Assembly (NCBI GenBank): GCA_051866595.1
Contig: JBJDXI010000069.1
Span: 1-53,510 of the forward strand
Length of the DNA: 53,510 nucleotides
Reading direction: 5' to 3'
Origin: Clostridia bacterium
GTDB taxonomy: Bacteria > Bacillota > Dehalobacteriia > UBA7702
The notes beneath the pieces are model-generated. The model saw only the letters and a program-made list of their open reading frames with translations, was not told the DNA's origin and searched no databases. Each line of letters begins with the position of its first letter. The first letter of the stretch is position 1. The position numbers were made by a program, and so were the translations under genes. Positions 1,061 through 33,264 of the stretch are shown one piece after another.

Positions 1061-1075
1061 AATTCAGTCTCCTCC

Positions 1076-3198: not shown

Positions 3199-3208
3199 TC
3201 ACATCGCA

Positions 3209-12360: not shown

Positions 12361-12430
12361 ACTGTCCCGTGGTACAATCCACTGTCACAAAAGTGACCCG
12401 ACTCCAGACGTATATCCGGTCTGTTCAGTT
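12361..12430 (-). ncRNA. NiCo (czcD) riboswitch
   Basis: AACTGAACAGAC-[hairpin]-GTC-GG-GTCAC/GTGAC-GTGG/CCAC-GGGACAGT four-way-junction pattern, directly upstream of a CDF gene. Confidence 0.8.
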
Positions 12431-12529
12431 TCGCTATTTCGTATTGCGTGAATCATATTTATTTATTATATCAGCCACAGCGTACAGCGTCAACAAAAAA
12501 ATACAGCGCCGGATTTCATCCCAAAATCA

Positions 12530-14008: not shown

Positions 14009-16642
14009 TCAGTTCAGGATATTTTCGTCAAAGCGCTGAAGCACCGCGGCGGCCTGGGCCCGGGTGGCGTTGCCCTGAGGTTCCAGAGTGCCGTTATCAT
14101 GGCCTTGGATCAGTTTAGAAGCCACGGCCCAGCCCATTTCTTCTTTCGCCCAGTCGCTGACGGAAGAACCGTCTTTGAAAGCGTCAAAAGAAGCGGTATT
14201 CGATACATCACAGCCGTTGAGTTTGGCGTAGCGGTACATCATCGCCGCCATCTGTTCACGGGTGATGGGATCCTGAGGCGCGAATTTGCCGGCGTAGCCT
14301 TCAACGATACCGTTTTCCGTACCCCAGGCCACGGCTTTGGAATACCATTCATCATCTTTCACATCATCATAAGAAGATGTGGCTTTGACTTCCGGTTCAC
14401 CGCCCAGGCGGTAAAGCATGGTGATATACATGGCGCGGGTCAGAGCGCTGTCTGGTTCAAAGGTCGTTGCCGTCATGCCGTTCATAATACCGTTGACATA
14501 GACATAACGGACATTTTCCATGTACCAGTCGCCGTCTTTCAGGTCGGTAAAGGGAAGCTCCGCGGTGAGATCAGCATAGGCTTTTTCCGCGGCGATAAGA
14601 GTATCGAGATTTTCCACAAAGCCTTTCTGTTCTTCGGTCAGAGCGTCATAGGCAGAGCGGGCCGCTTCGATGGCGCCTTTGCTTTCGAGGGTCACTTCGC
14701 CGATGGCCGCGATCTGTTTTTCCACGGCTTTTCCGGCAAGGTAATCATCACTGTACTGAGGATAGTTTTCCATGTAGGTTTCATGGGCCACACGGAAACA
14801 GGTTTTGCCGTTCAGAAGGTCGGCCAGCCCCTGCAGGACTTCGTAAGAAGCCATGCGGGTATCGTACTGCCCCATGCCGCCGCCGGCGTTCTGCTGGCAA
14901 AGGAGCGCAAAGAGGGCGCTTTGGCCGTTTTCGCCGATCCACGGATCATCGGTTCCGTATTCATCCAGTGTAACACCGGCGCCAACAGCGGTGGTGGTAG
15001 CTACCGCCACGGAAAATGTATTCATGTTACTGCCGTTGGCGATCACGGAAGTATAATTCTTCCGGAAAGCGTCGAGAAGCTTTTGGGCTTCTCCTTCCAT
15101 GCCTTCCACATCGTTCAGGAATTCACAGGCGAACAAGGTCATGGAATAAAAATCCGACATATTGGTGGACGCGCTGAGATCCACTTTTTCGCAGGCGTTC
15201 ACAAGGGTTTTGAGACCGGCGGCCCGGAGCTCTTCGGTATACCCTTCTTCCGGCGTGGCGTTCACCACTTCCAGGGCGAGCAGGAAATAGGATTCGGTGA
15301 TGGTATCGCTTTCGGCAAGGCGAACCCGAAGACTGCCGTCTTCATCGAGATTGAGTTCGCCGCCGGCGATATCGTGATCTTTATAGGCCAGAGAGATCAG
15401 GGCTTCCACAAGATTGGCGCCGCCGATGTTCCGGGGATCACCGCCGAGGCCGGCAATGCCGAGGATCTGACGGCCGAGGATTTTGGAAGCCGGTACCGAC
15501 CCCTGATTGGATGTTAGGCTTTCCAGTGTGGCATTTTTGAACTGAGAAGCTTTTGTATCGAGATAGGTTTTTCCCTCGGAGGAAGCCAGAAGTTCACTGT
15601 CGGCATCATAGCCCAGCGCGCCGAAAATATAAGCTTCCCAGTCGATGCCGGAGCCGTTGCCGGTATCCGCCGACAGGCCGAGATAATTTTCACCGTTGTA
15701 GAAACCTTTGGTCTGATACCATTTCACAAAAAGGTCCCGAGCGCCCTCGGCGTATTCTCTTGCCGTGGCGTACATGGTAAATTCCTGATACTGACGGCTG
15801 TCGCCGATTTCCGCAGCAACCCAGTATTTTCCGGCTTCAAGTCCTTCGGTGGGAATCGTTCCCGCGGTATCGGAATAGCAGTTCTGTACAATATCGCCGA
15901 CGGTGGTTTCCACCAGAGTACCTTCGATGGCGTCATCGGAAGTGCCGTTTTCCTTATCGGTCACATAAAGTTTAACGGCGGTATCATCATTGGCATCGGC
16001 AAAAGAAGCGCCGATACTGATTTTCATTGTATTTCCCTCATAATTAGAAACGGGAGAAATATCCAAACTTTTCACAACAGGTGAAGGTATTGTACAATAA
16101 AAAACGAAACTCGCGACTACTTGACCATCTGAATTCTGTTCAGATACGATATAACAATCTTCCAAACCAGTCCTTACATCAATAGGAGTATCTAATGAAG
16201 GAGTAAGGATACGAGCAGTACGTCCTCCTGAATTGATATACAACTGTTGATTATCTTTACCTAAATTCTTTACATTTACTAAATAAATATTTCTATCCGC
16301 GGGAACATCCAATTTAAACTGAGTGATATCTTCAGAAATATTTACGGTATAAATTTCCGCAGGGTTTTCTGCGACCCATTTTGAAAAAAAGGTATTAACA
16401 AACGCCTCACTTCTGTCAGCACCGGGATTTACCAGGGTAACCGTTTTCCCGGTATCAAAAAGCTCAAGAGCCGTAGATTCATCATCATTTGCATAGAACT
16501 GTAAAGAAGAAATAAGAGAATCAAGATTCGTTTCTTCCCCAGGTTCCTCTGCATAAACACCTAAGCTGAAACTCAACAGAACGATCAAGGCAAAAAAAGG
16601 AACAACGAGCAGATTTACTCTTCTTTTGATGATGTTTTCCAT
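14009..16642 (-). CDS. SLH surface protein with prenyltransferase/transcobalamin-alpha-like helical barrel
   Basis: Signal peptide; IDWEAYIFGALG, ILGIAGLGGDPRNIGGANLV and QQNAGGG motifs; one helical repeat; 3 SLH motifs. Confidence 0.75.
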   Translation of the reverse strand: MENIIKRRVNLLVVPFFALIVLLSFSLGVYAEEPGEETNLDSLISSLQFYANDDESTALELFDTGKTVTLVNPGADRSEAFVNTFFSKWVAENPAEIYTVNISEDITQFKLDVPADRNIYLVNVKNLGKDNQQLYINSGGRTARILTPSLDTPIDVRTGLEDCYIVSEQNSDGQVVASFVFYCTIPSPVVKSLDISPVSNYEGNTMKISIGASFADANDDTAVKLYVTDKENGTSDDAIEGTLVETTVGDIVQNCYSDTAGTIPTEGLEAGKYWVAAEIGDSRQYQEFTMYATAREYAEGARDLFVKWYQTKGFYNGENYLGLSADTGNGSGIDWEAYIFGALGYDADSELLASSEGKTYLDTKASQFKNATLESLTSNQGSVPASKILGRQILGIAGLGGDPRNIGGANLVEALISLAYKDHDIAGGELNLDEDGSLRVRLAESDTITESYFLLALEVVNATPEEGYTEELRAAGLKTLVNACEKVDLSASTNMSDFYSMTLFACEFLNDVEGMEGEAQKLLDAFRKNYTSVIANGSNMNTFSVAVATTTAVGAGVTLDEYGTDDPWIGENGQSALFALLCQQNAGGGMGQYDTRMASYEVLQGLADLLNGKTCFRVAHETYMENYPQYSDDYLAGKAVEKQIAAIGEVTLESKGAIEAARSAYDALTEEQKGFVENLDTLIAAEKAYADLTAELPFTDLKDGDWYMENVRYVYVNGIMNGMTATTFEPDSALTRAMYITMLYRLGGEPEVKATSSYDDVKDDEWYSKAVAWGTENGIVEGYAGKFAPQDPITREQMAAMMYRYAKLNGCDVSNTASFDAFKDGSSVSDWAKEEMGWAVASKLIQGHDNGTLEPQGNATRAQAAAVLQRFDENILN

Positions 16643-17301
16643 CTATTTTCTCCTTTCAATCATTTGATTTTTTAATTTTCATTCCCGCGCTGAAACGCGC
16701 GTTAAAATTCATTTCGATTCCGGATCAATGATACGTTTATCATCTCCCTTTTCCGGTCAGATCAACCTATGTTCCGACCTTATAAAATTCTGTGCGTGAA
16801 CCGCTTTCACGCAAACAATGAAGTTTTCAAAGACCGTGCTCCCCTTCCATATTTCAAAGCGCCGGAGTCCGTTGCGGAAAAGACCGGGTTTAGAACAACC
16901 AATTACTTTTTATTTTCTCCGTTTGGGCTTGGAATGGGAAGGTTTGGTATATTGCGGGGCTTGCGCCCGGACAATCAATAAGTATCTGCCCCAAAGGGGC
17001 CGCTCTCCTTTACAGGAGAGCTTTATATATTTTTTGGGAAGGAAATATTGAAAGGGGGGAAAACAAAACCCCCGACAACCGCGGAAACAAATCCCCTTGC
17101 GGGGCGGCTTCCGCGCAAACGGAAGCCGGGGAAGGTTTGTTTGGGTAAAAGAAACAATGTATTGCAAGGACGGAAAATCCGTCTCAAACAACCGGCATCG
17201 GAGCACCCCAAAAAAGAAAAAACGCCCATTCCCCTTTAAAAAAGGAAGGACGTTTTCATTTTCCGAGCACAAAACAAACGGAAGATCGACGGAAAACACC
17301 G

Positions 17302-17330
17302 TTGACACCGACAGAAAAGTACAGTAAAAT
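17302..17330 (+). promoter_or_regulatory. Near-consensus sigmaA promoter, antisense to the leader
   Basis: TTGACA-17 nt-TAAAAT. Confidence 0.65.
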
Positions 17331-17440
17331 AGAGATTGCCCTTCGGGGTACCGGCACGCTGTGCGAGAGAAAAGTGACCGCCAAGAAACTGACTCCGCAC
17401 AGCGTGTGCTTTATAGGATTTTGAATGTTAATATCAAATC

Positions 17441-17490
17441 AAAAAAACCGTATTTTCATTCTCTCGGAGAAGAAAATACGGTTTGCTTTT
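17441..17490. terminator. Riboswitch-1 terminator, possibly bidirectional
   Basis: AAACCGTATTTTC...GAAAATACGGTTT with U tracts on both strands. Confidence 0.75.
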
Positions 17491-17528
17491 TAGAAATCAA
17501 CCGGGATCATACACCAAGAGAAATACCT

Positions 17529-17664
17529 GCCGCATGACGTATTCTGACTCGGCTTCCATGTTTCCCTCGCCTTCCCGTTCTCAAAGGAACAGTGGCATCT
17601 GAGGTTCCCTCGGCCTCACAGCACCTTGGTAGTGTCCGGGATTTTCACCCGATTCCTATGCGGC
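17529..17664 (-). ncRNA. Cobalamin riboswitch 1
   Basis: AGGAATCGGGTGAAAATCCCG...CTGTGA...GCCACTG...CGGGAAGGC...AGTCAGAATAC. Loop TACCAAG is complementary to downstream CTTGGTG. Promoter TTGACT-17-TATATT at ~17720-17748. Confidence 0.9.
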
Positions 17665-17921
17665 GTTCCGATTCTGTTTATTTTTTCAGCGCACAAAATT
17701 AAATACTTATGTTATGTATAATATATCACGGAGTGCTCCGAAAGTCAATCAAAAAAGGCGAAAGGAACAAAAAAACCTTGGCGGAGCACACTAACAAACG
17801 ATACGATGCTCCGCAAGAAAATCAATTTTCGAGAACAAAATATTTGAAGTCAATTTCGCGAAAAAGCCTTGTTTTTCTCCGACAGCGTGGTATAATCATA
17901 TTGTAAATTGAATTGAACAGA

Positions 17922-18072
17922 GCAAAACGACGGAGAAACCGAGTTGGAATCTCGGACGGTCGCGCCACTGTGATGCGGAGCGTGCTTCGGATGAAAGTCA
18001 GCCACTGTAAAGTATGTTTATGGGAAGGCGAAGCAACGCGTTGATGCGAAGTCAGGATATTCCCCGTTTTGC
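17922..18072 (+). ncRNA. Cobalamin riboswitch 2, divergent, no downstream CDS
   Basis: CCGAGTTGGAATCTCGGACGGTCGCGCCACTGTGA...GCCACTG...TGGGAAGGC...AAGTCAGGATA. Kissing hairpin GCTTC-CGCGGAA-GAAGC at 18085-18101. Promoter TGnTATAAT at 17888-17896. Confidence 0.9.
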
Positions 18073-18119
18073 GTTTGAGTCTCAGCTTCCGCGGAAGAAG
18101 CGACGGTCTTTTTTATTGG

Positions 18120-18322
18120 AGAAAAGCCCCGTTTCTTTTTAGAAGCGGGGTCGATTTTATTTACATGTTGCCAAACTCAGTTCGTGTTCCGCATCTTTCC
18201 GTGTCTCTAAGGCATGAGGAACACACTCACCTCTTCTATTAAGGATAACTCCTTAACTACAAATCTCCTTTCCTTTTCTCTTTCTTTTCTCTCCGGCGGC
18301 CTTCAGCGGCCGCTCTTTTTTT
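18120..18322 (+). ncRNA. Candidate riboswitch-controlled sRNA (CU-rich)
   Basis: Hairpins, then CACCTC, CTCCTT and CTCCTTTCC motifs, ending in GCGGCC/GGCCGC plus a T run; no credible ORF. Confidence 0.45.
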
Positions 18323-18394
18323 GTATGAATCTACGCCAATCCCTCTTCTTCCCCCCCCCGGTTTAGGGAAAATCTTTTCCGTTTCCAAACAGCC

Positions 18395-18433
18395 GAAGGC
18401 CGATGCTGGTTTCAGCATCGGCCTTCTTTTTTT
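18395..18433. terminator. Strong terminator hairpin between convergent units
   Basis: GAAGGCCGATGCTG/CAGCATCGGCCTTC followed by T7. Confidence 0.8.
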
Positions 18434-18473
18434 CATTTCATCACAAGGAGGAAAAATACAGGAGGGATTCCTG

Positions 18474-21401
18474 TTATTTTGTCGTCATTTCCGCGAAACG
18501 CTGGATCACCGCGGCGGCCTGGGCCCGGGTGGCGCTGCCTTTCGGTTCCAGGGTGCCGTTATCATGACCCTGCATCAGCTTGGAGGCCACGGCCCAGCCC
18601 ATTTCTTCTTTCGCCCAGTCGCTGACGGTATTTCCGTCTTTGAAAGCGTCAAAGGAAGCGGTATTCGATACATCACAGCCGTTGAGTTTGGCGTAGCGGT
18701 ACATCATCGCCGCCATCTGTTCCCTGGTGATGCTGTCCATCGGACTGAATTTGCCGTTATAACCTTCCACGATGCCTTTTTCCGTGCCCCATGCCACGGC
18801 TTTGGAATACCATTCATCGTCTTTCACATCATCATAAGAAGATGTGGCTTTGACTTCCGGTTTACCGCCCAGGCGGTAAAGCATGGTGATATACATGGCC
18901 CGGGTCAATTCACTGTCCGGTTCAAAGGTCGTTCCCGTCATGCCGTTCATAATGCCGTTGACATAGACATAGCGGACAGAATCCTGATACCAGCCGTCCT
19001 TTGCCAGATCGGTAAAGGGAATTTCCGCGGTGATATAGGCGTAGGCTTCTTCGGCGGCAACAAGGTCATCGGCCTTTGAGACCAGAGCTTTCTGGTCGGC
19101 GGTCAAAGCGTTATAGGCGGCACGGGCCGCATCGATGGCGTCTTTGCTGTCAAGGGTCACTTCGCCGATGGCGGCGATTTTTTCATCCACCGCTTTGGCG
19201 GCGGCTTTGTCCGCGGCTTCTTTTTCCAGCTGAGCCAGTTTCGCTTCGGCGGCGGTGAGTGTATCGGCCTTGGTCACAAGGGCTTTTGCTTCATCGGAGA
19301 GAGCGTCATAGGCGGCACGAGCCCCTTCGATGGTGTCTTTGCTGTCGAGAGTCACTTCACCGATGGCGGCGATTTTCTTATCCACAGCGTCGGCGGCCAG
19401 CTGCTGTTTGACTTCGTCTTTCATGGCAATGGCAAAAATAGCGCCGCTGTCGTTTTTATGATAGATGGTGCCGTCTTCGTCGCAGATCACACTGGCGGTG
19501 CACCACTGTTCAAATCTTGCGGCATCGTAAAGGGTGGTCTGAACGGCTTCGGAACCGTCGGCTTTGGCCTTGATCACTTCCACGCCGCCGGGATTGTTGT
19601 TATAGGCAACATAAAGATACAGGTAACCGTCTTCTTCATAAGCGGTGGAGAGCAAAGGCGAAGTCTGAGCGTGGCCGCTTCCATTCACCGACCATTTGAT
19701 TTCTTTGGTGCTGAGGTCAATGCCGATGTAATGACCGTCTCCCCCTTTGCCCACGCCCATATAGGCCATGCCTTTATAGATCACCGGGGTGCTGGTGGCA
19801 CCGGTGCCGTAGGCGGAGCAGTCGATGATCTCAAGATCCGAAAGTTCGCCGGTTTCGCCGTTGATGGCCGCCATGCCCAGCTTACCGTTGTTGATGGCGA
19901 AGTATACTTTGCCGTTGTCATAGCAGACCGAGGAACGGATCGTGGTAGCTTCGCCCACCTCCAGATCGGTGACCAGCTTGCCGGTTTCTTTATCGCGGCT
20001 GTAAAGGTGGCCGCTGTCGCTGCCGTAGACTACATAATCGCCGACGATGGCGGCGCCGGCCCAATAGAAGCCTCTGGCATCGGTGGCACGCCAGATCAGT
20101 TTACCGGTTTCCGCGTCGAGACAGACAAAGGCATCTTCCTTGTTATACCCCCCAAATCCGGTGTAGATTTTGCCGTCGTCATAAGTGACGGGGCTGTAGG
20201 CGCCGCCGCCGTTTTCATCTTTATAAATCCATACGGAGTTCAGTGTTTTGGCGCTGAGAGCTTCCACAGTGCCGCCACCCAGAGGGCAGAAGATCAGACC
20301 GTCGCTGTAAGTAGCCGGAACCGTACCCCAGCTGTAGGAAGCGGATAATGCGCCGACGGCGGTGACTTCGCCGGTAACTTTATTGATTTTCTTTACGCTG
20401 TTTCCGCAGATGGAAACGACGGAATCATCCACAAGGATCAGGGGAGAAGGCGTATCGGACCAGTCGGTGCTGAAGGTCTTCTCCCAGAGCACTTCGGTTT
20501 CTTCGACGGTGCGGGGGGTCTGAGCCGCAGTGATACCGTTATTGATGCTGTTATTGCGGAACGAGGACCAGTCGGAATCATAAACCACACGGTCCATTTC
20601 CACTTCAATGGTGTATTCCGTGGCGCCGGAAGAGGTGTTCATCGAGGGCCAGGAGGTATCGCCGCATTTCACGGTGATGACAAGACCTTTGTCCACCGGA
20701 ATTTCCTCAGTGCGCTTGTATTCTTTGTCCCCCACATAAATGCGAACCTGGAAGTTTTTGTTTTCCGCGGTGGGCGTGATTTTTACCGAATCGGTGCCTT
20801 CGGGAAGTTTCAGGGAATATTCGTTGACATCCCCGTCAAATTCCGGCGATAAGGTGCCTTCGCTGGATTCCAGCGCTTTCAGCGCTGTGCTGTTGTTGTT
20901 CCAGGAGCCGCCGAGGTCTTCACCCATGGTAATGCTGTAACAGACACAAATCTCATCTCCGTCAGCCAAAGTTCCATCCGCAACAGTATAAGCAGAGAAG
21001 CCCTCATTGGTAAACCAATCATTCAGTGTACCCATCCAACCGGAATAACCACCGCCATCAAATGCACTGAGACCGTTAATCGAAGAAATATAACCGGAAT
21101 CCAGGCCTTCCGCCGTGAGGCCTTCACTTTCAAGGGCGGCCTTTACACAGCTCATCATCGTGGAGTCGTCATTCAGTTCCACCCAGGTATCCACCAGGGT
21201 ACCGGTCCAGAAGGAGTCTTCCCAGGTCAGATCGTTTTCTTCCGCAAATTCTTCATCAAAAGTGGTGTTTTCAATAATGACATGAACTTTATCCGTATCA
21301 CCGGAAAGACCGGTATCCAGCAGCGTCGCGGCGGAAAGGCCGGAGCTGAACGCGAAGATACAGAGAATCATGCAAAGTAAGCTAAGCCATTGTTTTTTCA
21401 T
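18474..21401 (-). CDS. SLH protein: DUF4430-like, cadherin-like beta-sandwich, PQQ-like beta-propeller, 2 helical repeats, 3 SLH
   Basis: YISSINGLSAFDGGGYSGWMGTLNDWF; LSPEFDGDVNEY; WSSFRNN and CLDAETGKLIW blades; start MKKQWL after an RBS. Confidence 0.8.
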   Translation of the reverse strand: MKKQWLSLLCMILCIFAFSSGLSAATLLDTGLSGDTDKVHVIIENTTFDEEFAEENDLTWEDSFWTGTLVDTWVELNDDSTMMSCVKAALESEGLTAEGLDSGYISSINGLSAFDGGGYSGWMGTLNDWFTNEGFSAYTVADGTLADGDEICVCYSITMGEDLGGSWNNNSTALKALESSEGTLSPEFDGDVNEYSLKLPEGTDSVKITPTAENKNFQVRIYVGDKEYKRTEEIPVDKGLVITVKCGDTSWPSMNTSSGATEYTIEVEMDRVVYDSDWSSFRNNSINNGITAAQTPRTVEETEVLWEKTFSTDWSDTPSPLILVDDSVVSICGNSVKKINKVTGEVTAVGALSASYSWGTVPATYSDGLIFCPLGGGTVEALSAKTLNSVWIYKDENGGGAYSPVTYDDGKIYTGFGGYNKEDAFVCLDAETGKLIWRATDARGFYWAGAAIVGDYVVYGSDSGHLYSRDKETGKLVTDLEVGEATTIRSSVCYDNGKVYFAINNGKLGMAAINGETGELSDLEIIDCSAYGTGATSTPVIYKGMAYMGVGKGGDGHYIGIDLSTKEIKWSVNGSGHAQTSPLLSTAYEEDGYLYLYVAYNNNPGGVEVIKAKADGSEAVQTTLYDAARFEQWCTASVICDEDGTIYHKNDSGAIFAIAMKDEVKQQLAADAVDKKIAAIGEVTLDSKDTIEGARAAYDALSDEAKALVTKADTLTAAEAKLAQLEKEAADKAAAKAVDEKIAAIGEVTLDSKDAIDAARAAYNALTADQKALVSKADDLVAAEEAYAYITAEIPFTDLAKDGWYQDSVRYVYVNGIMNGMTGTTFEPDSELTRAMYITMLYRLGGKPEVKATSSYDDVKDDEWYSKAVAWGTEKGIVEGYNGKFSPMDSITREQMAAMMYRYAKLNGCDVSNTASFDAFKDGNTVSDWAKEEMGWAVASKLMQGHDNGTLEPKGSATRAQAAAVIQRFAEMTTK

Positions 21402-21562
21402 TTTATGATTCCTTTCCATAGGTAGATTTTTTCGGCCGTATGCTTTGTTTTGCTCCTTTCTTCTTCCCAATCGGCCGTATGCGGGAAAATATTCTATTCA
21501 AGCTGCGCCCTCCGGAAACGGAGGAGCCGCAAACCTTGTCAGATCCACAGGGAACACTCCCT

Positions 21563-22165
21563 CTATTCCATATCCGAACCCACGTCTTTTCCCAGATCGC
21601 AGGTGTAATGCCAGCCGATGACATCCCCCTCGGAAACGAGGTAGCGGCTGGCGCCGTAATTGGGAAACCAGTCGTTGACGCAATAGGTCCAGCCGGAAAG
21701 GGAGCCGCAGTCAAATTCATAGAGATTGGCGATGCCCTCCACATAGTGGGAGTCGTACAGCGGCGTCCAACTGAATTCCAGATGAATCTTGTTTTCGATC
21801 ATTTCCCGTTTCAGCACATCGAAAACGGTTTCCCCTTCGTAAAAGGGAACCTCCTGCTTGGCAAAGATCACGCCGTCCTCGGGAACGAGGGCTTGCTTTT
21901 CCTTAGGCAGGGATTCCATGTGATCGAGAATCGTGGAACATTCCACCACCAGCACGCAGGTGCCCTCTTTGGATTCGTCAATGTTCTTGTTTTCATCCTC
22001 GCCGTCGATGGGCATAGGCTGTCCTTCCGGAATCTCATCGGTATTCACCGCCGCCACATCGTCGCTGTAAGCGGCAGCCTGCTCCGTGGTGACGGTACCG
22101 CAGGCCGCGGCGAAAACCATCACCGCCGCCAGCAAAAACAGAACCGCGAAAAACTTCCGTTTCAT
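21563..22165 (-). CDS. DUF4430 (transcobalamin C-terminal-like) lipoprotein
   Basis: Lipobox-like FAAAC; YVEGIANLYEFDCGSLSGWTYCVN...WHYTCDLG. Confidence 0.85.
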   Translation of the reverse strand: MKRKFFAVLFLLAAVMVFAAACGTVTTEQAAAYSDDVAAVNTDEIPEGQPMPIDGEDENKNIDESKEGTCVLVVECSTILDHMESLPKEKQALVPEDGVIFAKQEVPFYEGETVFDVLKREMIENKIHLEFSWTPLYDSHYVEGIANLYEFDCGSLSGWTYCVNDWFPNYGASRYLVSEGDVIGWHYTCDLGKDVGSDME

Positions 22166-22184
22166 GATGCTCCCGCCTTTCTCT

Positions 22185-23198: not shown

Positions 23199-23208
23199 CT
23201 CTTCCTCC

Positions 23209-25620: not shown

Positions 25621-26783
25621 ATCAACACCTGATACAGTGCGTTCCGGTAATTCTCCGGCGTTACGGCATACACCTCGCCGCCGGCAAAATCCGTACCGGA
25701 TTCCCGTTCCGAGCAGAGGATCATCGTTTTCCGCACCGTCTGAGGCAGAACGGAAAACGTTTCCGAGGGAGAGGAAGCGATATAAACAATATTGGAGTAA
25801 CTGCCGTGATCTCCGGTTTTCAAATATCCCTCCACCGTATCCTCTTCACCGCGGATTTCCGAAACGGACAGGATCTCCGGCAGAATGAGCTGAAAGGATT
25901 CCTCGGAATCAATACGGTGACCGACAAAGGTTCCGTTTTCCGAACGAAGCCAGCCAACGGTATGCGCGGCATTCATTTCCGTCAGACGATGGGAAAGAGA
26001 GAGCAGGATTTCGCCTAAAGCGTGGCGCGCCGAAGGCGAAGTCCAAGGTTGCCCCGGAGGACAGACACGTTCAAAGAGAATCAGCACCGATTCATTCACC
26101 GGCAGGCTGGCCTCGCGGATCATCAGCCGGTCGTATTTCCCCGTCAGTTTCCAATGGATACTGCGAAGGGCGTCACCGGGCTCGTAATCACGGACGGCGA
26201 AAGTCTCCGAGGGATCGTTCCCCGCTTTGTAAGGAGAAAAACGGTCACATTCCGGTTCGGTCACACCGCTTTTCGCCACCGTAACATCGATGGGGAAAAG
26301 CTCCGGCAGAATCAGGGCGTATTGTGATAATTCCTTTGGAACGAAAAGAGCCGCCGTTCCAAAAGAATCATACACTTTCAGACTTTTCACGGTGACCGCC
26401 GCTTTTCCGCAGTGAGCGGAAACAGCATGAAAGGAAGACACCGCCCGGCCCCGGCCGGGAACCACCAGAGCAACGGTATCCTCCGCCTTTTCTCCGGTAA
26501 AAAGATTTTTTATTTCCACAACGACTCGGAGCACCGGAAAAGGACAGCGGCAGGGATTTTCCACGGCAATCTCTCCGGAAACAGGCTCTCCCGGCCCGGA
26601 CAGATCGCCAAGGGACAGCGATACTTCCATCCTGGGCGCGAAGAGGCGGTTCAGCACCGAGGAAACAGCGATTATCAGCAGTACCGCGGCGATCAGTAAC
26701 AGAGGAAGAATACTCTCCCCAAAAATCGCCAGCACCAGCAGGGCCACAACAATGCCGCTGACATACAGAACACGTTTATTCAT
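25617..26783 (-). CDS. DUF58 domain protein
   Basis: VRDYEPGDALRSIHWKLT; 2 N-terminal TM segments; located between MoxR and the transglutaminase. Confidence 0.9.
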   Translation of the reverse strand: MNKRVLYVSGIVVALLVLAIFGESILPLLLIAAVLLIIAVSSVLNRLFAPRMEVSLSLGDLSGPGEPVSGEIAVENPCRCPFPVLRVVVEIKNLFTGEKAEDTVALVVPGRGRAVSSFHAVSAHCGKAAVTVKSLKVYDSFGTAALFVPKELSQYALILPELFPIDVTVAKSGVTEPECDRFSPYKAGNDPSETFAVRDYEPGDALRSIHWKLTGKYDRLMIREASLPVNESVLILFERVCPPGQPWTSPSARHALGEILLSLSHRLTEMNAAHTVGWLRSENGTFVGHRIDSEESFQLILPEILSVSEIRGEEDTVEGYLKTGDHGSYSNIVYIASSPSETFSVLPQTVRKTMILCSERESGTDFAGGEVYAVTPENYRNALYQVLI

Positions 26784-27729
26784 AGCGTGATCCCTTTCCC
26801 GTTACCGGCATCATCACCGAAGAGAGCAGTTCCGCCGTGATGTCCCCGGCGGAAGTTCCCGTCAGCCGCGCCTTTGGCTGGAGCATCAGACGGTGTCCTA
26901 CCACATCGGGGAAGACCGCGGCAATATCCTCGGGAATCACGTAATTCCGACCTTCGATAAAGGCATGGGCTTTGCCCATACGGCTCAGCGCCAGGGCGCC
27001 CCTAGGGCTTAACCCCTGCAGTACCAGATCATGACAGCGGGTCGCCTCCGCCAGGGAGGTAATATATTCGTAAATGGCATCGGCAACATATACGTCCGTC
27101 ACCTCTTCCCTGAGGGCCACCAGTCCTTCGGCATCCATCTTACATTCGATACGGTCCAACGGATTGGCGGAATGGCGGTCTTTCAGAATGTTCACCTGAC
27201 TTTGGAAATCCGGGTACCCCATCCGGGTCCGAATCATAAACCGGTCCAACTGGGAGTCGGGGAGCATCTGGGTACCGGCGGAGCCCACGGGATTCTGGGT
27301 GGCAATCACCACAAAGGGACGGGGCACTTCCCGGGTCACGCCGTCCACGGTGACACGGAATTCTTCCATAACCTCCAGCAGCGCCGACTGGGTGCGGCTG
27401 GAGGTACGGTTGATTTCATCGGCCAGAAAGAGATTCGTCATCACAGCACCGGGTTTATACTCAAAATTCCCCGTCGATTTGTCATAAACCGAAAAGCCCA
27501 CAATATCCGAGGGCATACTGTCAGAGGTCAGCTGAACCCGTTTGTAATCCAATCCCAATACCTTGCTGAAGGCCAGCGCCAGCGTGGTTTTGCCGACACC
27601 GGGGACGTCATCGAGAAGGATGTGCCCTCCGGAAAGCATCGCCATCAGAACTTTGGCGATGATCTCATCCTTCCCGATGATGACTTTTTTGATTTCAGAC
27701 AAAATATCGTTTACCTGTTGATTCATCAT
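26776..27729 (-). CDS. moxR: MoxR-family AAA+ ATPase
   Basis: DVPGVGKT, LADEINR, TQSALLE, ATQNP and QLDRF. Confidence 0.93.
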   Translation of the reverse strand: MMNQQVNDILSEIKKVIIGKDEIIAKVLMAMLSGGHILLDDVPGVGKTTLALAFSKVLGLDYKRVQLTSDSMPSDIVGFSVYDKSTGNFEYKPGAVMTNLFLADEINRTSSRTQSALLEVMEEFRVTVDGVTREVPRPFVVIATQNPVGSAGTQMLPDSQLDRFMIRTRMGYPDFQSQVNILKDRHSANPLDRIECKMDAEGLVALREEVTDVYVADAIYEYITSLAEATRCHDLVLQGLSPRGALALSRMGKAHAFIEGRNYVIPEDIAAVFPDVVGHRLMLQPKARLTGTSAGDITAELLSSVMMPVTGKGSRYE

Positions 27730-27744
27730 AACGATCCCTTTCGA

Positions 27745-29799
27745 TCAATAAGATTCAATAAATTTTTCGGGATACTCCCCGGCGGCGCCGTTCAGCCCGC
27801 CGATGTCGCGTCCCAGATTCAGTGTGAACCGAATGGAAAGCCGCTGACCGTCATTGAGATAAACGCCGCTCAAACCGCAATTGGGATAAAACTCATCCAC
27901 GGCGATATTCCAGCCGGATTTGGCATAGAAATCCATCTCTCCGAGACTGTCCGGACTCCAGACTCCGGTTTCCGAGGCGCCGTCCCTGTCAAGGTATTCC
28001 AGGAGACTGGCGGGAATTTCAACATTTGGAACAAGATTTTCTCCGTAGATCCGAGCCAGGTAAAACCCGCTGTCCAGCGTACCTGTAGAATCAAAGGAGA
28101 TATTACAGCTGTCAAAAAGCCGTTTCACCACATAAGACGCCGGTTCACCGTCGTAAATTTCCACTTGCGTCGGCGGAACGATGTATCCCAGGCCCAGCGT
28201 AGTGGCTTCCACGCTGACGGTGGCATAACCGATGGGCCCGTCGTTCCGGTGATAGGTCAGGTGGAAAATATAGAGAGCGTTATAGCCCTCGTCATCCTTG
28301 ACGTAAACCGTCACCTCATTCTCCGGCGAAGATAGATTCAGAAGATAGCTGGTCTTTTCGTTTTCCCCCTCAAGCCGCACAGGGCTTCCGTTCAGCTTCA
28401 CCGAAATGTTGCTGGAATAGAGACGCTCTCCGTGATAATCATAAGCGATCAGATCCACGGTGTATTTGCTGTTGTTCACCGTCATGGGATCCGTCAGATT
28501 GCATTGGATCGTCGGCGCGTGGGCTTTATCGGGAATTGGATTTTCCGCTGTGGCCTGCTGCCGTTCAAAATAGATCTTATAGCTGCGGGAAACTTTCTGA
28601 TCGCCGTCTTTCGCCGTGATGGTCACGGTGTTTTCACCGTGGGAAAGTTCCATACTGAATTTTCCGTTTCCGTCGCTCTGCTGGGTTTTACCGCCGTTCA
28701 GACGCACCGATATTTTGGCGTTTTCGCTGTTGACCATCCATACGGAAAAAGCGAGGTTCGCCTCGGAAACGGTCATGCCGTCGGTGAGATCGGTCTCGAA
28801 ATCAAAAATACCGGAACTGATATAGGTAACCGTGTAAGTTTCCTCTTTGCGCAGGCCGTTTTTCTCGGCGGAAAGGACGAAAACATTGGCGCCGTCTTTC
28901 AGCCGCACCCGGTAGCTGCCGGCACTGCCTTCGGTTTTTTCACCGTTCAGCGTCACCGTTAACGGCGTGTCTTCTCCAAGATAGGAGGCATCGGCCGTAA
29001 AGGAAAGAAGATCCCGGTCTACGGTCTGATCTTTCAGAGATGTATTGATCACAAGGCTTTTCGTATCCAGATAAACGGTATAGTCTTTATAAGGCGAGGC
29101 GACGATTTTGCCGGAAGCGTCGGCATAATCGATCTTAACCCGAATGGTGTTTTTTCCTTCGGTAAGATCCACTTTGCCGTTGAACTGGGGAACCAGATGC
29201 CCGTTGACAAAAACCTGAACCTCTTTGGGGCTTAACGAGGAATCTTTATGACGGATAGAAAAGGAGTAATCCTTTACGGTTACCGTCTCGCCGTCTTTGA
29301 TGGAAGTGGTGAAATACTCCGTAGAGGTGGTATTTCCGTTTTCCGTATTGCCGCCGGCGATACCGTTATTTCCCGGTGAAGCGGGAGCATCCGCCGTGGA
29401 TTGAGAAGTAGAGGATGGTTTTTGCTCTGTTTCCGGATCACTGTCGTTCCCTTCGGGCTGGGCCGATTCTTCCTCTTCTTCCTCAGGCTCCGATTCCTCT
29501 TCTTTTTCATCGTTCAGCGCTTCATCGCTGAGTTCCTGTTCCTCCCCATCGGTCTGTTCCGAAGCGACGGGAACCGGAATATAAACATTTTCATCGGTTT
29601 CCCCTTCGCAATCCAGCACGGAAGATTCCGCATCCCAGGAAGAGGAAGCTCCCGCAATGGGGTTTTCCGGAGCCGTTTCCCCGGCGAAAAGAGCACCGCA
29701 GCCCAAAATAAGAAAAAAGGCAATAAGGAGCAAACCCATTCCCACAGACGACGCCCTCTCCCGGTAAAAGGAAAGGCACCGGCTGAGAATCGTTTTCAT
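27745..29799 (-). CDS. Exported protein: acidic linker, several Ig-like modules and a C-terminal DUF4430-like domain
   Basis: N-terminal hydrophobic anchor; repeated L..G.N.I.V modules; LGEMDFYAKSGWNIAV...RFTLNLGRDIG. Confidence 0.7.
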   Translation of the reverse strand: MKTILSRCLSFYRERASSVGMGLLLIAFFLILGCGALFAGETAPENPIAGASSSWDAESSVLDCEGETDENVYIPVPVASEQTDGEEQELSDEALNDEKEEESEPEEEEEESAQPEGNDSDPETEQKPSSTSQSTADAPASPGNNGIAGGNTENGNTTSTEYFTTSIKDGETVTVKDYSFSIRHKDSSLSPKEVQVFVNGHLVPQFNGKVDLTEGKNTIRVKIDYADASGKIVASPYKDYTVYLDTKSLVINTSLKDQTVDRDLLSFTADASYLGEDTPLTVTLNGEKTEGSAGSYRVRLKDGANVFVLSAEKNGLRKEETYTVTYISSGIFDFETDLTDGMTVSEANLAFSVWMVNSENAKISVRLNGGKTQQSDGNGKFSMELSHGENTVTITAKDGDQKVSRSYKIYFERQQATAENPIPDKAHAPTIQCNLTDPMTVNNSKYTVDLIAYDYHGERLYSSNISVKLNGSPVRLEGENEKTSYLLNLSSPENEVTVYVKDDEGYNALYIFHLTYHRNDGPIGYATVSVEATTLGLGYIVPPTQVEIYDGEPASYVVKRLFDSCNISFDSTGTLDSGFYLARIYGENLVPNVEIPASLLEYLDRDGASETGVWSPDSLGEMDFYAKSGWNIAVDEFYPNCGLSGVYLNDGQRLSIRFTLNLGRDIGGLNGAAGEYPEKFIESY

Positions 29800-30000
29800 G
29801 AAACGCCCCCTTCCGGTCTCCTCATTTTACAAACAGCAGAAAGGCAGCAAGCTCACGCCTGCCGCTTTCCGCAAAGAGGAGAATAAGAGAAAAAGAATAA
29901 CGAATATAACGCGTTTTACAACTCACGAAGGATGATTTCCCGGGAGTCTTATCGGGAGCATCCATTCGTCAAAAATGCAGAGAAACAGCGAGGGCCGCCG

Positions 30001-30258
30001 GGGATCCACCCGTGTGCTGATGGATTCTTTCCCCGAAAACCGCCCTTGCGCGCCGACATACCTGTTTCTTCAAGGAGACTCCGTGGCGGGCATATCACCC
30101 CATCCCCGAAGAATACCGCGGCGCCTGCCGGTAAAGAGCCTTTGAATCCGATCCCTACGGCCCGTGTGCTGACCGTCTGAAACGGGGCTTTCCTTTCCCG
30201 GCAATCTATTACATCCTTTCGGAGACTCCTTTATGGTTTCATACCATTCCGAAAAGAT
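30001..30258 (-). ncRNA. Candidate tandem structured RNA element in the leader
   Basis: Two ~150-nt units, each with a GGA(A)TGG..CCA..GGAGTCTCC junction and a hairpin containing TCAGCACACGGG. Confidence 0.45.
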
Positions 30259-30270
30259 ATAAACAAAGAC

Positions 30271-30330
30271 AAAAAAAGTGCGCAGAATCAGACCGGAAGA
30301 AGAGGGTCTCCCGAGCCGACAACTGCACAC
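30271..30330 (-). terminator. Second leader terminator/attenuator
   Basis: GTGTGCAG...CTGCGCAC followed by T7. Confidence 0.55.
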
Positions 30331-30356
30331 GTAAAACAATATAGAGTTTCCTATTC

Positions 30357-30389
30357 AAAAAAAACCGCAAAAGCATTGAGCCTTTGCGG
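30357..30389 (-). terminator. Riboswitch-3 terminator
   Basis: CCGCAAAGGC...GCTTTTGCGG followed by T8. Confidence 0.75.
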
Positions 30390-30436
30390 ACGCCTGACAT
30401 CAACTGTATGTGGCAGCTGAACGTTCGATCGATCCG

Positions 30437-30570
30437 CCAAAGCAAGTATCCCGACTTAGATTCAACGCCCTTTCCCGCCTTCTCGATCATAGATCAATGG
30501 CATATGGGAACGGCTCATCATCACGGTGGCCATACCGCAGAGGAATTGCACCTCTATTCCATAGCTCTGG
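30437..30570 (-). ncRNA. Cobalamin riboswitch 3
   Basis: GGAATAGAGGTGCAATTCCTCTGCGGTATGGCCACCGTGA...GCCATTG...GAGAAGGC...AAGTCGGGATAC. GTATG is complementary to a downstream CATAC loop. Promoter TTGCAT-17-TATGAT at 30596-30624. Confidence 0.9.
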
Positions 30571-30648
30571 AATCGTTTTTTTCGATTGTAGATATATCAT
30601 ACCATCGTTCTTTTGAAAATGCAAGAAGAATTTTTCAAAAAGCAAAAG

Positions 30649-30680
30649 AATATGCTCCCGGCTTTCATCGGGAGCATATT
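30649..30680 (-). terminator. Terminator of the 803-aa gene
   Basis: AATATGCTCCCG/CGGGAGCATATT stem. Confidence 0.75.
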
Positions 30681-30695
30681 TCACAAACAATCATT

Positions 30696-33107
30696 TTACA
30701 GTGACAGAACAAAGCGCATCATAACCGCGGCGATCTGCGCTCTTGTGGCGGAACCTTTCGGCGCCAGAATGATCCGCCCACCGTCGGTGGTACCGCCGAT
30801 ATATCCCTGTTTCACCGCCCACTGGAAGGGCTTCATGGCATAGGGCGAAATTTCGACGGCATCCGGGAAGGAGGAAACGGAAGTCACGGAGGATACATCC
30901 ATTCCTTTGTATTCATCGCAGTAACGATAGAAAATCGTTACCATCTGTTCTCTGGTAATCATTGCGTCAGGAGAGAACGTATCATCGGAGGTTCCTTTGA
31001 CAATACCGTTCTGATAAGCCCACACAACGGCATTTTGATACCAGTCGGCCGTCAGATCGGTAAAGGGCACCCCGCCCTTCACAGCAGGGGAACCGCTGTA
31101 CCGATACAGGATCACCACAAGCTGTGCCCGGGTTGTATTTTTATCCGGAGCGAATACTGTTGTTTCCATACCGTTCATCAACCCGTTCCAGTAATTGAAC
31201 AAAACGCCGTCACGGTACCAATCTCCGCTTTTCACATCACGGAAAGGATTTTCCTTGATTTTCGTTTCAGCGGCAGTCAAAGCCGAAAGGTTTGTTACCA
31301 GAGCCTGTTCTTCCTTGGTCAGTTGTTCATAGGCGATCCGGGCTTCGGCAACGCTTTTTTCGGAGATACGTCCGTTGAGACCGTTAATTTTCGCCGTGAC
31401 CGCCGCCACCGCTTCGTGGTCAACGGAATCCGTTACGGAAATATCCACCGAGGTATAAAGAGGAGAAACCGTCTGATTGATATTGTTCTGATCGTTATCG
31501 TTATTTCCGTCGTCGGTATCCCGGTACATCACATGGGAAAAGGTCAGCGTCACTTCAATATCATCCTCTGTCAGCGGATCCGTACTGTATTCCACATATT
31601 CCGTCACATCCCGGGTTTTTCCGTTGGCGTAGGTGGCCGTAACAACCATACCGGCGGGATCAAAGGTTTCCCCGGCATTATATTCGGTTTTATCCGGTTC
31701 CTTTGTGACTTCCAGCTTTTTGATGCTCCAGCCCAGTGCCATAATGTAGCAGGAATCGTTTTTGAAATACATCGTGCCGTACTCATCGCAGATGGCGCTG
31801 CCGAGGGCATACTGCACCTGTTCCCCGGCGGGAGTAAATAAAATCTCCGCGAATTGGGATTTGCTGTCCATCTCGGTCTGGCCGGGCTTATCCTTGATCA
31901 CCCGAACTTTGCCGGGCACATAATTTTCAATAAAATAGACATAAACCGAACCGTCGGTTTCCTCGTAGGCCGTGGTTAAAAGTCCGCTGGTCTGAACGCA
32001 GCCCTGGGTGGGGCAGGAATAGGCCACTTCACCTTTTTCCAGATCGATGACGTCGATATGATGGCCCAGTTCGATATTTTCCGCGTCGGTCTGCACAAAC
32101 TGTCCCTGTTTGCCCTGAACGCCGACGTAAGCCCGGCCGTTATAGATCACCGGAGTACAGGAAACCTTGCCGCCGAGATCCATTTCAAGCATATTCTCTT
32201 CATCGAGATTCCCTTCGGCGTCTACGGGAACTCCATAGAAGGAACCGCCCTGGGAGGCGAAGTAAGCCGTCCCTGCGCCGTCGCCGTCTTCATCCACAAA
32301 CGCGACGGTACTGCGGATATCACCGTTCAAACCTTCAATTTTGTCAATCACCTGCGCTTTACCGCCGTCGCTGTGATTGCCGGAGCGAACCGAATAAAAG
32401 ACCGAAGATCGTGCAACCCCCTCACCGGTGGATGCGTCGCCCTCACCGTCATCGGAGCCGACGAGAAGATAATTGTCATTCACATAGCACCCGGCCCAGT
32501 AAAAACCGCCGGTATGGGTCAGCGTCCAGACTTCTTCACCGGTCTCAGCGTCAACGCAGACATAATCCGCTTCCGAGGTGGAGGAACGCCAGTAACCGGT
32601 ATAAACGTAACCATCATGATAAGTCACCGGACAGTTGGACTGCCCTCGGTTCTCGTTCTGATACAGCCATCCCGCGGTCATCGTCTCTAAATCCATCACC
32701 TGAAGCTTGCCGTTGGCCAGCGACACATAGAGAGAACCGTCACAGTAGGTCGGCGGCGTAATATTCCAGGAAGAGGAGCTGGCGGCATCCAGTTCCCCCT
32801 GCTGAATCACTTCCCCGGTCACCGAATCCACCTTGTATACAATATTGCTGCAAAAAAAGACGATGGCGTCATCGACGATAATCGGGGGACTCGGCGCGTA
32901 ATCCCAGCCTGTACCGATTTTCTTCGCCCAGTAAAGAGTCGCGTCATCGGCCTGGGTCGGCAGAGCGACGGACGTCACACCGTTATTTTCCGGATTCCCC
33001 CGGAAATTACCCCAGGTATAGGCGTAAAGTCCCTGAGCGGAAAAGCAAAGAAAACACATAACGGCCAGGGCCAAAAGGGCCAAACGACATGATTTTTTTC
33101 GTTTCAT
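30696..33107 (-). CDS. SLH protein: PQQ-like beta-propeller, Ig-like domain, helical repeat, 3 SLH
   Basis: WGNFRGN, CVDAETGEEVW and YFKNDS motifs shared with the 18474-21401 protein; PDKTEYNAGETFDPAGMVVTATY; SLH motifs. Confidence 0.8.
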   Translation of the reverse strand: MKRKKSCRLALLALAVMCFLCFSAQGLYAYTWGNFRGNPENNGVTSVALPTQADDATLYWAKKIGTGWDYAPSPPIIVDDAIVFFCSNIVYKVDSVTGEVIQQGELDAASSSSWNITPPTYCDGSLYVSLANGKLQVMDLETMTAGWLYQNENRGQSNCPVTYHDGYVYTGYWRSSTSEADYVCVDAETGEEVWTLTHTGGFYWAGCYVNDNYLLVGSDDGEGDASTGEGVARSSVFYSVRSGNHSDGGKAQVIDKIEGLNGDIRSTVAFVDEDGDGAGTAYFASQGGSFYGVPVDAEGNLDEENMLEMDLGGKVSCTPVIYNGRAYVGVQGKQGQFVQTDAENIELGHHIDVIDLEKGEVAYSCPTQGCVQTSGLLTTAYEETDGSVYVYFIENYVPGKVRVIKDKPGQTEMDSKSQFAEILFTPAGEQVQYALGSAICDEYGTMYFKNDSCYIMALGWSIKKLEVTKEPDKTEYNAGETFDPAGMVVTATYANGKTRDVTEYVEYSTDPLTEDDIEVTLTFSHVMYRDTDDGNNDNDQNNINQTVSPLYTSVDISVTDSVDHEAVAAVTAKINGLNGRISEKSVAEARIAYEQLTKEEQALVTNLSALTAAETKIKENPFRDVKSGDWYRDGVLFNYWNGLMNGMETTVFAPDKNTTRAQLVVILYRYSGSPAVKGGVPFTDLTADWYQNAVVWAYQNGIVKGTSDDTFSPDAMITREQMVTIFYRYCDEYKGMDVSSVTSVSSFPDAVEISPYAMKPFQWAVKQGYIGGTTDGGRIILAPKGSATRAQIAAVMMRFVLSL

Positions 33108-33127
33108 CCTGATTCCTCCTTAAAAAT

Positions 33128-33264
33128 AAAAAAAGTGCGCAAACAAAGACAGAAAAATCTGTCTTTCCATTGCACACATCGGAATTTTCCCCGCGGCTTC
33201 ACACTTGCCGAAGGAAACGCTATGAAATTGAGGTCATTATAGCAGAGAAAACAAAAACTGTCAA
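33128..33264 (-). promoter_or_regulatory. Consensus promoter and terminator-like leader hairpin
   Basis: TTGACA-17-TATAAT (33264-33236); GTGTGCAA...TTGCGCAC plus a T run just before the RBS. Confidence 0.7.

Follow-up and report, generated by a model that had tools for sequence, protein, structure and literature searches.

We analysed a stretch of 53,510 nucleotides (hereafter the window) of contig JBJDXI010000069.1 from a Clostridia bacterium (assembly GCA_051866595.1), which harbours a cluster of nine minus-strand genes, here called A to I, between positions 14009 and 33107. This cluster probably encodes the outer part of a vitamin B12 (corrinoid) acquisition system of a Gram-positive anaerobe, for which we infer the binding of corrinoids, the order of their hand-over and the task of a MoxR-type ATPase. 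The gene set is conserved, and its link to B12 is well supported by comparison: seven kinds of its genes travel together across 80 related loci, cobalamin riboswitches are found upstream of cluster genes in 19 of them, and co-oriented genes for energy-coupling factor (ECF) importers accompany the cluster in 39, in agreement with an earlier reading of the window (hereafter the original prediction) in which the nine genes form one B12-linked system. Capture of B12 by DUF4430 and toroid domains has been predicted before; the MoxR module as an integral part of it appears to be new.

The cluster provides a defined parts list that is conserved widely, with examples in Blautia, Ruminococcus, Oscillospiraceae and Clostridium cadaveris, and a riboswitch hints at the ligand. 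It also connects the MoxR-DUF58-TgpA-like trio, long left unexplained, with a concrete process that can be assayed. As some carriers are in culture, binding and uptake can be tested and genes knocked out. Gut communities are shaped by competition for B12, so that a second major capture strategy beside the Btu system of Bacteroides would be of ecological interest.

Domain composition of the cluster

We assigned domains to the nine open reading frames (ORFs) by a Pfam scan with curated cut-offs. Proteins A (30696-33107, 803 residues), H (18474-21470, 998 residues) and I (14009-16642, 877 residues) each end in three SLH stretches (93.9, 105.1 and 118.8 bits, respectively). In A, these are preceded by a signal peptide, a BamB-like propeller (PQQ_2) and a Big_3 domain; in H, by a DUF4430 domain, a Cadherin-like domain, a BamB-like 8-bladed propeller (PQQ_2) and helical repeats; and in I, by a signal peptide, an N-terminal beta region, an alpha/alpha-toroid-like middle part (residues ~330-610) and helical repeats. 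A and H are paralogous, with 35 % identity over 784 residues. The last 276 residues of H and I, made up of helical repeats and SLH domains (coded at 18474-19310 and 14009-14840 on the minus strand), are 74 % identical, far above the remainder of the two proteins, which suggests a recent duplication or gene conversion.

Three further proteins are predicted to be tethered to the membrane. F (22185-23198) is a 337-residue lipoprotein with an alpha/alpha-toroid (Prenyltrans, 29.9 bits for a cut-off of 26.5), and G (21563-22192) is a 209-residue lipoprotein with a DUF4430 (SLBB) domain. B (27745-29799, 684 residues) starts with an anchor or lipobox, followed by an acidic linker, an Ig/Cadherin-like stalk and a divergent DUF4430-like C-terminus. 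The Pfam DUF4430 model (PF14478, cut-off 23.8 bits) matches G at 54.1 bits and H at 31.5 bits; on B it yielded nothing at E <= 0.01, and B orthologues remain below the threshold with 18.3 and 15.9 bits. The resemblance of the B C-terminus to this domain is evidenced by blastp against G (6e-7) and by a home-made hidden Markov model (HMM) of the G family (E 2.8e-10 in a search of 11 sequences). Similarly, the middle part of I was aligned to the F family with hhalign, with modest confidence (78.9 % probability, E 1.6e-5, 241 columns).

The remaining genes code for a trio of a different nature. C (26776-27729) is a MoxR-type AAA+ ATPase (AAA_3, 181.3 bits; AAA_lid_2, 75.5 bits). D (25617-26783), whose gene overlaps those of C by 8 nucleotides and of E by 4, is a DUF58 protein with an N-terminal membrane segment, the domain match being marginal (24.6 bits for a cut-off of 23.4). 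E (23209-25620) is a TgpA-like membrane protein (Transglut_core, PF01841, 67.8 bits) predicted to consist of six N-terminal transmembrane segments, a large outside domain with the transglutaminase-core fold and Ser538 in place of the catalytic Cys, a seventh transmembrane segment and a cytoplasmic tail. One N-terminal hydrophobic segment is present in each of A, B, F, G, H and I, that is, in all six non-cytoplasmic proteins; D also has one, C none and E seven.

This composition matches the one described in the original prediction, namely nine co-oriented genes with three DUF4430-like domains (G, H and the C-terminus of B), two alpha-barrel proteins (F and the middle of I), two paralogous beta-propellers (A and H), three SLH-anchored proteins and the MoxR-DUF58-transglutaminase families. 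Its statement that the window has no ECF or BtuFCD gene also holds: among the 20 other ORFs of the window that were scanned, we found no B12 transporter (ECF, BtuFCD) or synthesis gene.

Conservation of the gene set across Clostridia

To collect related loci, we aligned four E proteins and used the alignment for a pattern scan that covered one genome per species; it found 95 relatives, from which the best 80 loci were kept. Gene kinds were scored by blastp of the window proteins against all ORFs of these 80 loci, many of which are cut by contig ends. The recurring set comprises the TgpA-like protein E (80/80 loci), the DUF58 protein D (74/80), the MoxR protein C (71/80), the alpha-toroid lipoprotein F (68/80), the DUF4430-tailed stalk protein B (64/80), a BamB-like propeller protein (53/80) and the DUF4430 lipoprotein G (48/80), and all seven kinds are found together in 34 loci. 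The synteny survey proposed with the original prediction thus retrieves the same seven protein kinds in other Clostridia, including Blautia, Ruminococcus, Oscillospiraceae, Christensenellales, Clostridium cadaveris, Emergencia, Anaerovoracaceae, Peptostreptococcaceae, Thermacetogenium, Syntrophaceticus and others.

The place of the DUF58 gene after that of MoxR is conserved in 74 of the 80 loci. At least four gene orders were found otherwise, such as P-B-F-C-D-E-G, G-F-C-D-E-B-P, C-D-E-F-B-P and B-C-D-E-P-F-G, where P denotes the propeller gene. That the gene set is kept while its order varies argues for a functional unit. Gene fusions were also identified: F and G form a single chain in locus L078, with the toroid first as in transcobalamin, and in L098 and L106 a single ORF spans E and F, with a membrane segment, a tail and a signal segment in between.

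Closer to the source organism, E orthologues are present in five of the six other genomes of the genus, in 8 of 61 relatives including its own genome, and in 8 of the 73 genomes of the whole GTDB class. The locus of genome G001 reads A, A', riboswitch, B, C, D, E, F, G, and those of G002 and G003 harbour a gene for a giant propeller-SLH protein followed by a shorter B, C, D and E.

Riboswitches and importer genes at related loci

We built a DNA profile from the 12 cobalamin riboswitches of the source genome (1.87 Mb) and refined it once; it recovered the control Rfam hits in L010 and L013. Strong matches (E < 1e-5) were obtained in 22 of the 80 loci, all of them on the strand of the cluster. 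According to the locus maps, the riboswitch lies upstream of at least one cluster gene in the 19 loci mentioned above and only past the last recognised gene in three. In 29 loci, the visible sequence extends by more than 1 kb beyond the leftmost cluster or ECF gene on the upstream side, and 13 of these loci have a riboswitch. Rfam confirmed all 11 profile matches examined in seven loci, with 39-105 bits, and confirmed riboswitches directly ahead of the MoxR gene in six loci (L071, L080, L085, L087, L094 and L099). Among six profile-negative loci submitted to Rfam, one gave a marginal match (L051, 32.7 bits).

ECF genes were found beside the cluster in 41 loci, typically directly after G. Genes for both EcfT and the fused EcfAA' are present in 35 loci, and a gene for the S component in addition in 30; the identity of the ECF genes was established with Pfam in L094 and in contig C163 of the source genome. 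In L080, L084, L087 and L094, a first riboswitch is followed by a further ORF, EcfT, EcfAA', S and G, and a second one by C, D, E, F, B and the propeller gene. In such Emergencia-type loci, the ECF operon opens, behind its riboswitch, with a gene for a protein made of HNH_repeat modules (724-1713 on the plus strand in L094, and likewise in L087).

In the source genome, contig C163 carries a riboswitch-EcfT-EcfAA'-S operon of the same type as the importer of the relatives. Genomes G001 to G005 (1.5-2.6 Mb) each have 10-26 cobalamin riboswitch matches, several of which (loci L128-L133) precede genes for giant SLH proteins of 1250-2800 residues that resemble H and I in their DUF4430, toroid and repeat segments. 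The source genome also encodes enzymes of cobamide synthesis (cbiA, B, C, D, ET, G, H, P and bzaB). On contig C188 (L117, 2166-4775 on the minus strand), a cobalamin riboswitch leads two ThiC-like genes, one of which scores above the BzaB cut-off (725.6 vs 700 bits), which suggests anaerobic synthesis of a benzimidazole lower ligand.

Two other observations concern corrinoid-related elements of these genomes. Another riboswitch of the source genome (L113, contig C98, 4266-4432, minus strand) precedes a gene for a secreted protein of at least 1351 residues (2-4054, minus strand) with aBig_2 and GLUG domains, the assembled part of which harbours no DUF4430, toroid or SLH. In addition, PYLIS_3 elements, that is, mttB-type pyrrolysine insertion elements (51-68 bits), were detected in L013 (1171-1270 and 3638-3737), L014 (16760-16859) and L015 (6017-6116); their distance to the cluster, in G002 and G003, is a few kb. 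Corrinoid-dependent methylamine methyltransferases are probably in use in the genus.

Transcription units of the cluster

Using the Rfam covariance model RF00174 (gathering cut-off 31.5 bits), we confirmed the three cobalamin riboswitches that had been reported in the window, all of them above the cut-off. Two of the three, riboswitches 1 and 2, have an expression platform and a gene downstream on the same strand; riboswitch 3 is followed by terminators and by no gene. The view that the cluster is under riboswitch control therefore stands for genes B to H and for gene I, headed by riboswitches 1 and 2, respectively, and falls for riboswitch 3, which lies on the plus strand ahead of no gene, and for gene A, which has no riboswitch.

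Gene A is its own transcription unit and is not led by a riboswitch. It is preceded by a sigma-70-like promoter site on the minus strand (33236-33264; TTGACA, 17 nucleotides, TATAAT, with TG) that matches the consensus at 12 of 12 positions, and no Rfam riboswitch was found between this site and the gene. A terminator-like hairpin directly follows its stop codon (30649-30680, minus strand).

Riboswitch 1 (30424-30582, minus strand, 53.3 bits) comes next, behind a promoter-like site identified by eye (~30596-30623, minus strand, TTGCAT-17-TATGAT). Its expression platform is a terminator hairpin with a T-run (30365-30389, minus strand), 35 nucleotides past the aptamer, and a long leader of ~565 nucleotides separates it from gene B. 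Genes B to H overlap or are separated by at most 92 nucleotides, so that the operon headed by riboswitch 1 comprises seven genes in the order B-MoxR-DUF58-TgpA-like-F-G-H. It is closed at the end of gene H by a strong hairpin of 14 pairs with T-runs on each side (18395-18426). An orthologue of riboswitch 1 lies at the same place in G001, where similarity of the leader is limited to the first ~64 nucleotides past the riboswitch, corresponding to the terminator region. Of note, the 12-nucleotide word TCAGCACACGGG occurs twice in the leader before B, at 30161-30172 and 30009-30020 on the minus strand, 152 nucleotides apart; this leader is not conserved in G001.

Riboswitch 2 (17539-17656, minus strand, 60.9 bits) is a short form that covers model positions 47-167 only and heads gene I. 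It has its own promoter-like site (17720-17748, minus strand; TTGACT, 17 nucleotides, TATATT, with TG) and an AT-rich terminator hairpin with a T-run (~17441-17486, minus strand, by eye). The leader from riboswitch 2 to gene I is 896 nucleotides long (16643-17538, minus strand) and contains no credible ORF. Similar short-form riboswitches precede I-like genes in G001, G002 and G005, where the corresponding leader holds an extra gene for a secreted protein of 289-324 residues, with a DUF4430 domain in the G002 copy. We found no remnant of this gene in the 896-nucleotide leader of the window by blastn and tblastx, and no further Rfam family at E <= 1 in either long leader. Most likely, two transcription-terminating cobalamin riboswitches gate the B-C-D-E-F-G-H operon and the single gene I, the switching by ligand being predicted from these features.

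Structure predictions

A structure model of F based on 20 homologues is a confident alpha/alpha-toroid (pLDDT 89.1). Foldseek retrieved transcobalamin, at ranks 3, 8, 10, 19 and 23 with TM-scores of 0.56-0.60 (2V3N at rank 3, 4ZRP_B at 8 and 2BB5 at 23); terpene cyclases match equally, with drimenyl-diphosphate synthases ranking first (TM-score 0.53), and prenyltransferase beta subunits are also present. At the sequence level, no Cobalamin_bind domain was found by Pfam, no transcobalamin was matched by the F-family profile among PDB sequences at E <= 10, and single-sequence searches of the PDB with G, F and B retrieved no transcobalamin, G and B giving chance-level matches only. The fold of F is thus compatible with a transcobalamin-like role, which it does not prove. 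Prediction of an F-G complex with alignments A4 and A5 (score 0.08, mark 0.32) was uninformative either way.

The propeller of H was modelled with a pLDDT of 88.9 and matches BamB and other eight-bladed propellers. The 50 Foldseek matches listed (ranks 1-50 with gaps) are all BamB, YxaL, tetrathionate hydrolase or designed propellers of 8-10 blades, and BtuG is absent among them. The likeness to the B12-binding propeller BtuG that had been evoked for the propellers was therefore not borne out.

The profile of E aligns with the periplasmic domain of Pseudomonas aeruginosa TgpA (6G49) at E 1.4e-10. We examined the column opposite the Cys residue of the GFCAHYA motif in 6G49, which we take to be the catalytic residue of TgpA in a Cys-His-Asp triad. 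Among 82 members of the E family, this position is occupied by Ser in 44, Asp in 31, Thr in 6 and Gln in 1, and by Cys in none; the His residue is kept in 74 and a Glu residue is found at the acid position in 75. Since the catalytic Cys is replaced in all 82 members, cross-linking by E is unlikely, and the proposal that a transglutaminase remodels the system is not supported. E is most likely a pseudo-enzyme or an altered hydrolase rather than a cross-linking transglutaminase.

Proposed function and alternative explanations

In the acquisition system that we favour, low intracellular B12 would let the riboswitches allow read-through and so switch the system on. H, with its DUF4430 domain and propeller, and I, with its alpha-toroid, would be held in the wall zone by their SLH anchors. 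At the membrane, the lipoproteins F and G would present an alpha-toroid and a DUF4430 domain, the two domain types between which B12 is held in transcobalamin, and B would contribute a further DUF4430-like head on a membrane-tethered, Ig-like stalk. The DUF4430 and toroid modules would most likely bind corrinoids like the halves of transcobalamin, and the riboswitch-controlled ECF importer, located on another contig in the source genome and next to the cluster in many relatives, would take the corrinoid in. MoxR, DUF58 and E would constitute an ATP-driven membrane module that remodels, loads, unloads or assembles the outside binders, the ATPase and a vWA-like adaptor being on the inner side of the membrane and the large dead-enzyme domain outside, beside F.

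Tentatively, C, D and E could be a trans-membrane ATP motor that opens or empties a split transcobalamin-like sandwich, formed by F together with either G or a DUF4430 head of B or H, so that the corrinoid is handed to the ECF importer; we regard this as possible, at somewhat long odds. Such a motor would be the Gram-positive counterpart of the TonB-powered transfer from BtuG to BtuB, and mechanically akin to the AAA+/vWA motors of the tetrapyrrole chelatases (CobS/CobT and BchI/BchD). If this is true, the widespread orphan MoxR-DUF58-TgpA trio might be a general energiser of ligand-binding proteins outside the membrane.

Several observations weigh against assigning the cluster to B12 acquisition. 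The loci were selected through their similarity to E, and related species account for many of them, so that the counts are not independent. Of the 29 loci with a visible upstream region longer than 1 kb, 16 show no riboswitch, and the Rfam search was empty in five of the six profile-negative loci. The propeller-B-C-D-E loci of G002 and G003 have no riboswitch (E <= 0.1) and neither F nor G. The fold of F is no closer to transcobalamin than to class II terpene cyclases and prenyltransferases, and in sequence the F-family profile matches only cyclases in the PDB. The organism appears able to make cobamides, and scavenging is therefore not obligatory. Finally, RNA-library contigs from three studies (shares of the stretch 0.05-0.10) are short, a few of them are near-identical, and they cover scattered parts of the cluster only, namely parts of A, E, H, I and intergenic regions; no strand, level or B12 dependence can be read from them, and the libraries may contain DNA.

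We consider it rather unlikely that MoxR-DUF58-E, B and the propeller protein form a general module for surface-protein assembly or adhesion, a cousin of the Bifidobacterium PFNA operon that stands beside B12 uptake, is sometimes co-regulated with it and handles no corrinoid. The G002 and G003 loci just mentioned speak for such a module, as do the bifidobacterial MoxR-DUF58-transglutaminase trios, which accompany an FN3 surface protein according to parts of two reports (PMC8430577, PMC6803598). However, the MoxR operon has its own riboswitch apart from that of the ECF operon in L080, L084, L087 and L094, and the six Rfam-confirmed riboswitches directly before MoxR add to this. Moreover, B bears its DUF4430-like domain in G002 and G003 too, and F is coded inside the MoxR operon in most loci, and in one ORF with E in L098 and L106.

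Less likely still is a corrinoid-related task other than the import of complete B12, such as the capture of precursors (cobinamide) or of particular cobamides, or the retention of self-made cobamide at the surface. The anaerobic cobalamin pathway and bzaB behind riboswitches in the genome are consistent with it, and the paralogous binders (G, H and B; F and I) could differ in specificity. B12 or its precursors were proposed as ligand by Burroughs et al. in the text of their 2007 study (PMC1796856). The ECF importer with its S component and the OFF-type riboswitches are nevertheless in keeping with uptake, be it of complete cobamides or of precursors.

Class II terpene cyclases carry a DxDD acid motif. 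It is very unlikely that F and I act outside the cell as enzymes of the terpene-cyclase/prenyltransferase superfamily on an envelope lipid or glycan, with DUF4430 as a generic partner and a secondary link to riboswitches: the F-family profile does match drimenyl-diphosphate synthases and squalene-hopene cyclases at E 2e-12 to 5e-10, the former also being first by fold, and F has D-V-D at residues 206-208, the place of the acid motif, but the last Asp is missing in its DVDIT (residues 206-210), no prenyl diphosphate is expected outside the cell where this predicted lipoprotein resides, F is regularly accompanied by DUF4430, riboswitches and ECF genes, and the F-G fusion follows the transcobalamin order.

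Comparison with known systems

The acquisition system proposed here joins features of several known systems. ECF-type importers of B12 include ECF-CbrT of Lactobacillus delbrueckii. The importers of the relatives likewise belong to the ECF type; they consist of EcfT, a fused EcfAA' and an S component, coded behind a riboswitch and beside a DUF4430 gene, and such an operon is found on contig C163 of the source genome. They differ in that the importer lies outside the window and that the S protein of the source genome has ~220 extra N-terminal residues.

As in animal transcobalamin, intrinsic factor and haptocorrin (2BB5, 2V3N and 4ZRP), an alpha/alpha-toroid is combined with a beta-grasp DUF4430-type domain, in one chain in L078. 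Unlike in the animal proteins, the two domains are otherwise split into separate lipoproteins; no match is found at the sequence level, and the structural alignments have 12-14 % identity.

The MoxR-DUF58-TgpA trio is known from P. aeruginosa, where we take it to be PA2875-PA2874-TgpA, and from Bifidobacterium, where it presumably corresponds to the PFNA cluster. The same three families occur here in the same order and with overlapping genes, whereas the replacement of the catalytic Cys in 82 of 82 members and the embedding in a B12-linked set distinguish the present trio. Its presence within a B12-linked gene set with a riboswitch points to a ligand. In the literature, we found no link between the MoxR-DUF58-transglutaminase trio and B12, nothing on bacterial B12 capture by DUF4430, and no report of MoxR, DUF58, pseudo-TgpA, B and the BamB-like propeller as one riboswitch-linked set.

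The closest precedent is the work of Burroughs et al., who in 2007 predicted B12 scavenging for Gram-positive SLBB proteins with toroid, Ig or propeller partners near CbiO/CbiQ-like genes. The systems described in the text of that study share with ours secreted or anchored DUF4430 proteins, alone or with toroid, Ig or beta-propeller domains, paralogous SLBB genes in one operon, and CbiO/CbiQ-like (ECF) neighbours (PMC1796856). In contrast, the MoxR-DUF58-pseudo-TgpA trio and B are constant members here; the main text of that study mentions neither AAA/MoxR proteins nor transglutaminases nor riboswitches, and its supplementary neighbourhood table may list such neighbours.

Part of a 2026 review calls extracellular cobamide capture in Gram-positive bacteria "entirely uncharacterized" and describes the Btu relay of Bacteroides thetaiotaomicron, composed of BtuG, BtuH, BtuJ, BtuK and BtuB (PMC13616437). 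To judge from that part, the two systems have in common several surface binders under cobalamin riboswitches, sometimes two per locus, the idea of a multi-step hand-over, and the joining of a propeller to another putative B12-binding domain, as in the BtuGH fusion and in H (PMC13616437). Unlike the Btu relay, the system of the window has no outer membrane, TonB or BtuB, its propeller is BamB-like and not BtuG-like, and DUF4430 and toroid domains take the place of the BtuH and BtuJ (DUF4465) domains. Its anchors are SLH domains and lipoboxes, and an AAA+ module would replace the energy supplied by TonB.

A stand-alone riboswitch unit and other features of the window

Riboswitch 3 (17892-18082, plus strand, 60.5 bits) points toward the 3' end of gene H, with no ORF behind it. 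It belongs to a unit on the plus strand (17870-18314) that starts with an extended -10 element, TGGTATAAT, at ~17880, and continues past the aptamer with a first terminator (18126-18151), a pyrimidine-rich conserved stretch that includes the anti-Shine-Dalgarno-like CACCTCTTC, and a second terminator (18295-18314). Copies with 73-76 % identity were found in all five same-genus genomes searched, making seven copies including that of the window, and the similarity runs beyond the aptamer. In the alignment of these copies, the extended -10 element, the aptamer, terminator 1, ACATGTTGCCAAACT, the pyrimidine-rich stretch with CACCTCTTC and terminator 2 are conserved. Genes resembling spoVAD/spoVAE precede the unit in five of the six other copies, and the downstream neighbours vary.

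Because no ORF lies behind riboswitch 3 and conserved copies of its unit occur in other contexts in relatives, it is not a control element of the cluster, contrary to its place in the original prediction; as judged from these alignments, it is a stand-alone unit of a riboswitch and a small RNA conserved in the genus. Antisense control of gene H was considered and rejected, the unit being found in other contexts in five relatives. It is thus a candidate B12-controlled small RNA; B12 could determine whether the unit yields a short non-coding RNA or a long one. Rli55 of Listeria and EutX of Enterococcus are riboswitch-controlled small RNAs. The present unit resembles them by its own promoter-like site, its two terminators and its lack of a gene, and differs from them by the absence of eut genes and by its conserved pyrimidine-rich tail with CACCTCTTC.

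Outside the cluster, the window encodes a further SLH protein, with a Cleaved_Adhesin domain (1076-2866, minus strand). A NiCo riboswitch (12360-12437, minus strand, 47 bits) is present ahead of a gene for a cation-efflux (CDF) protein at 11128-12291.

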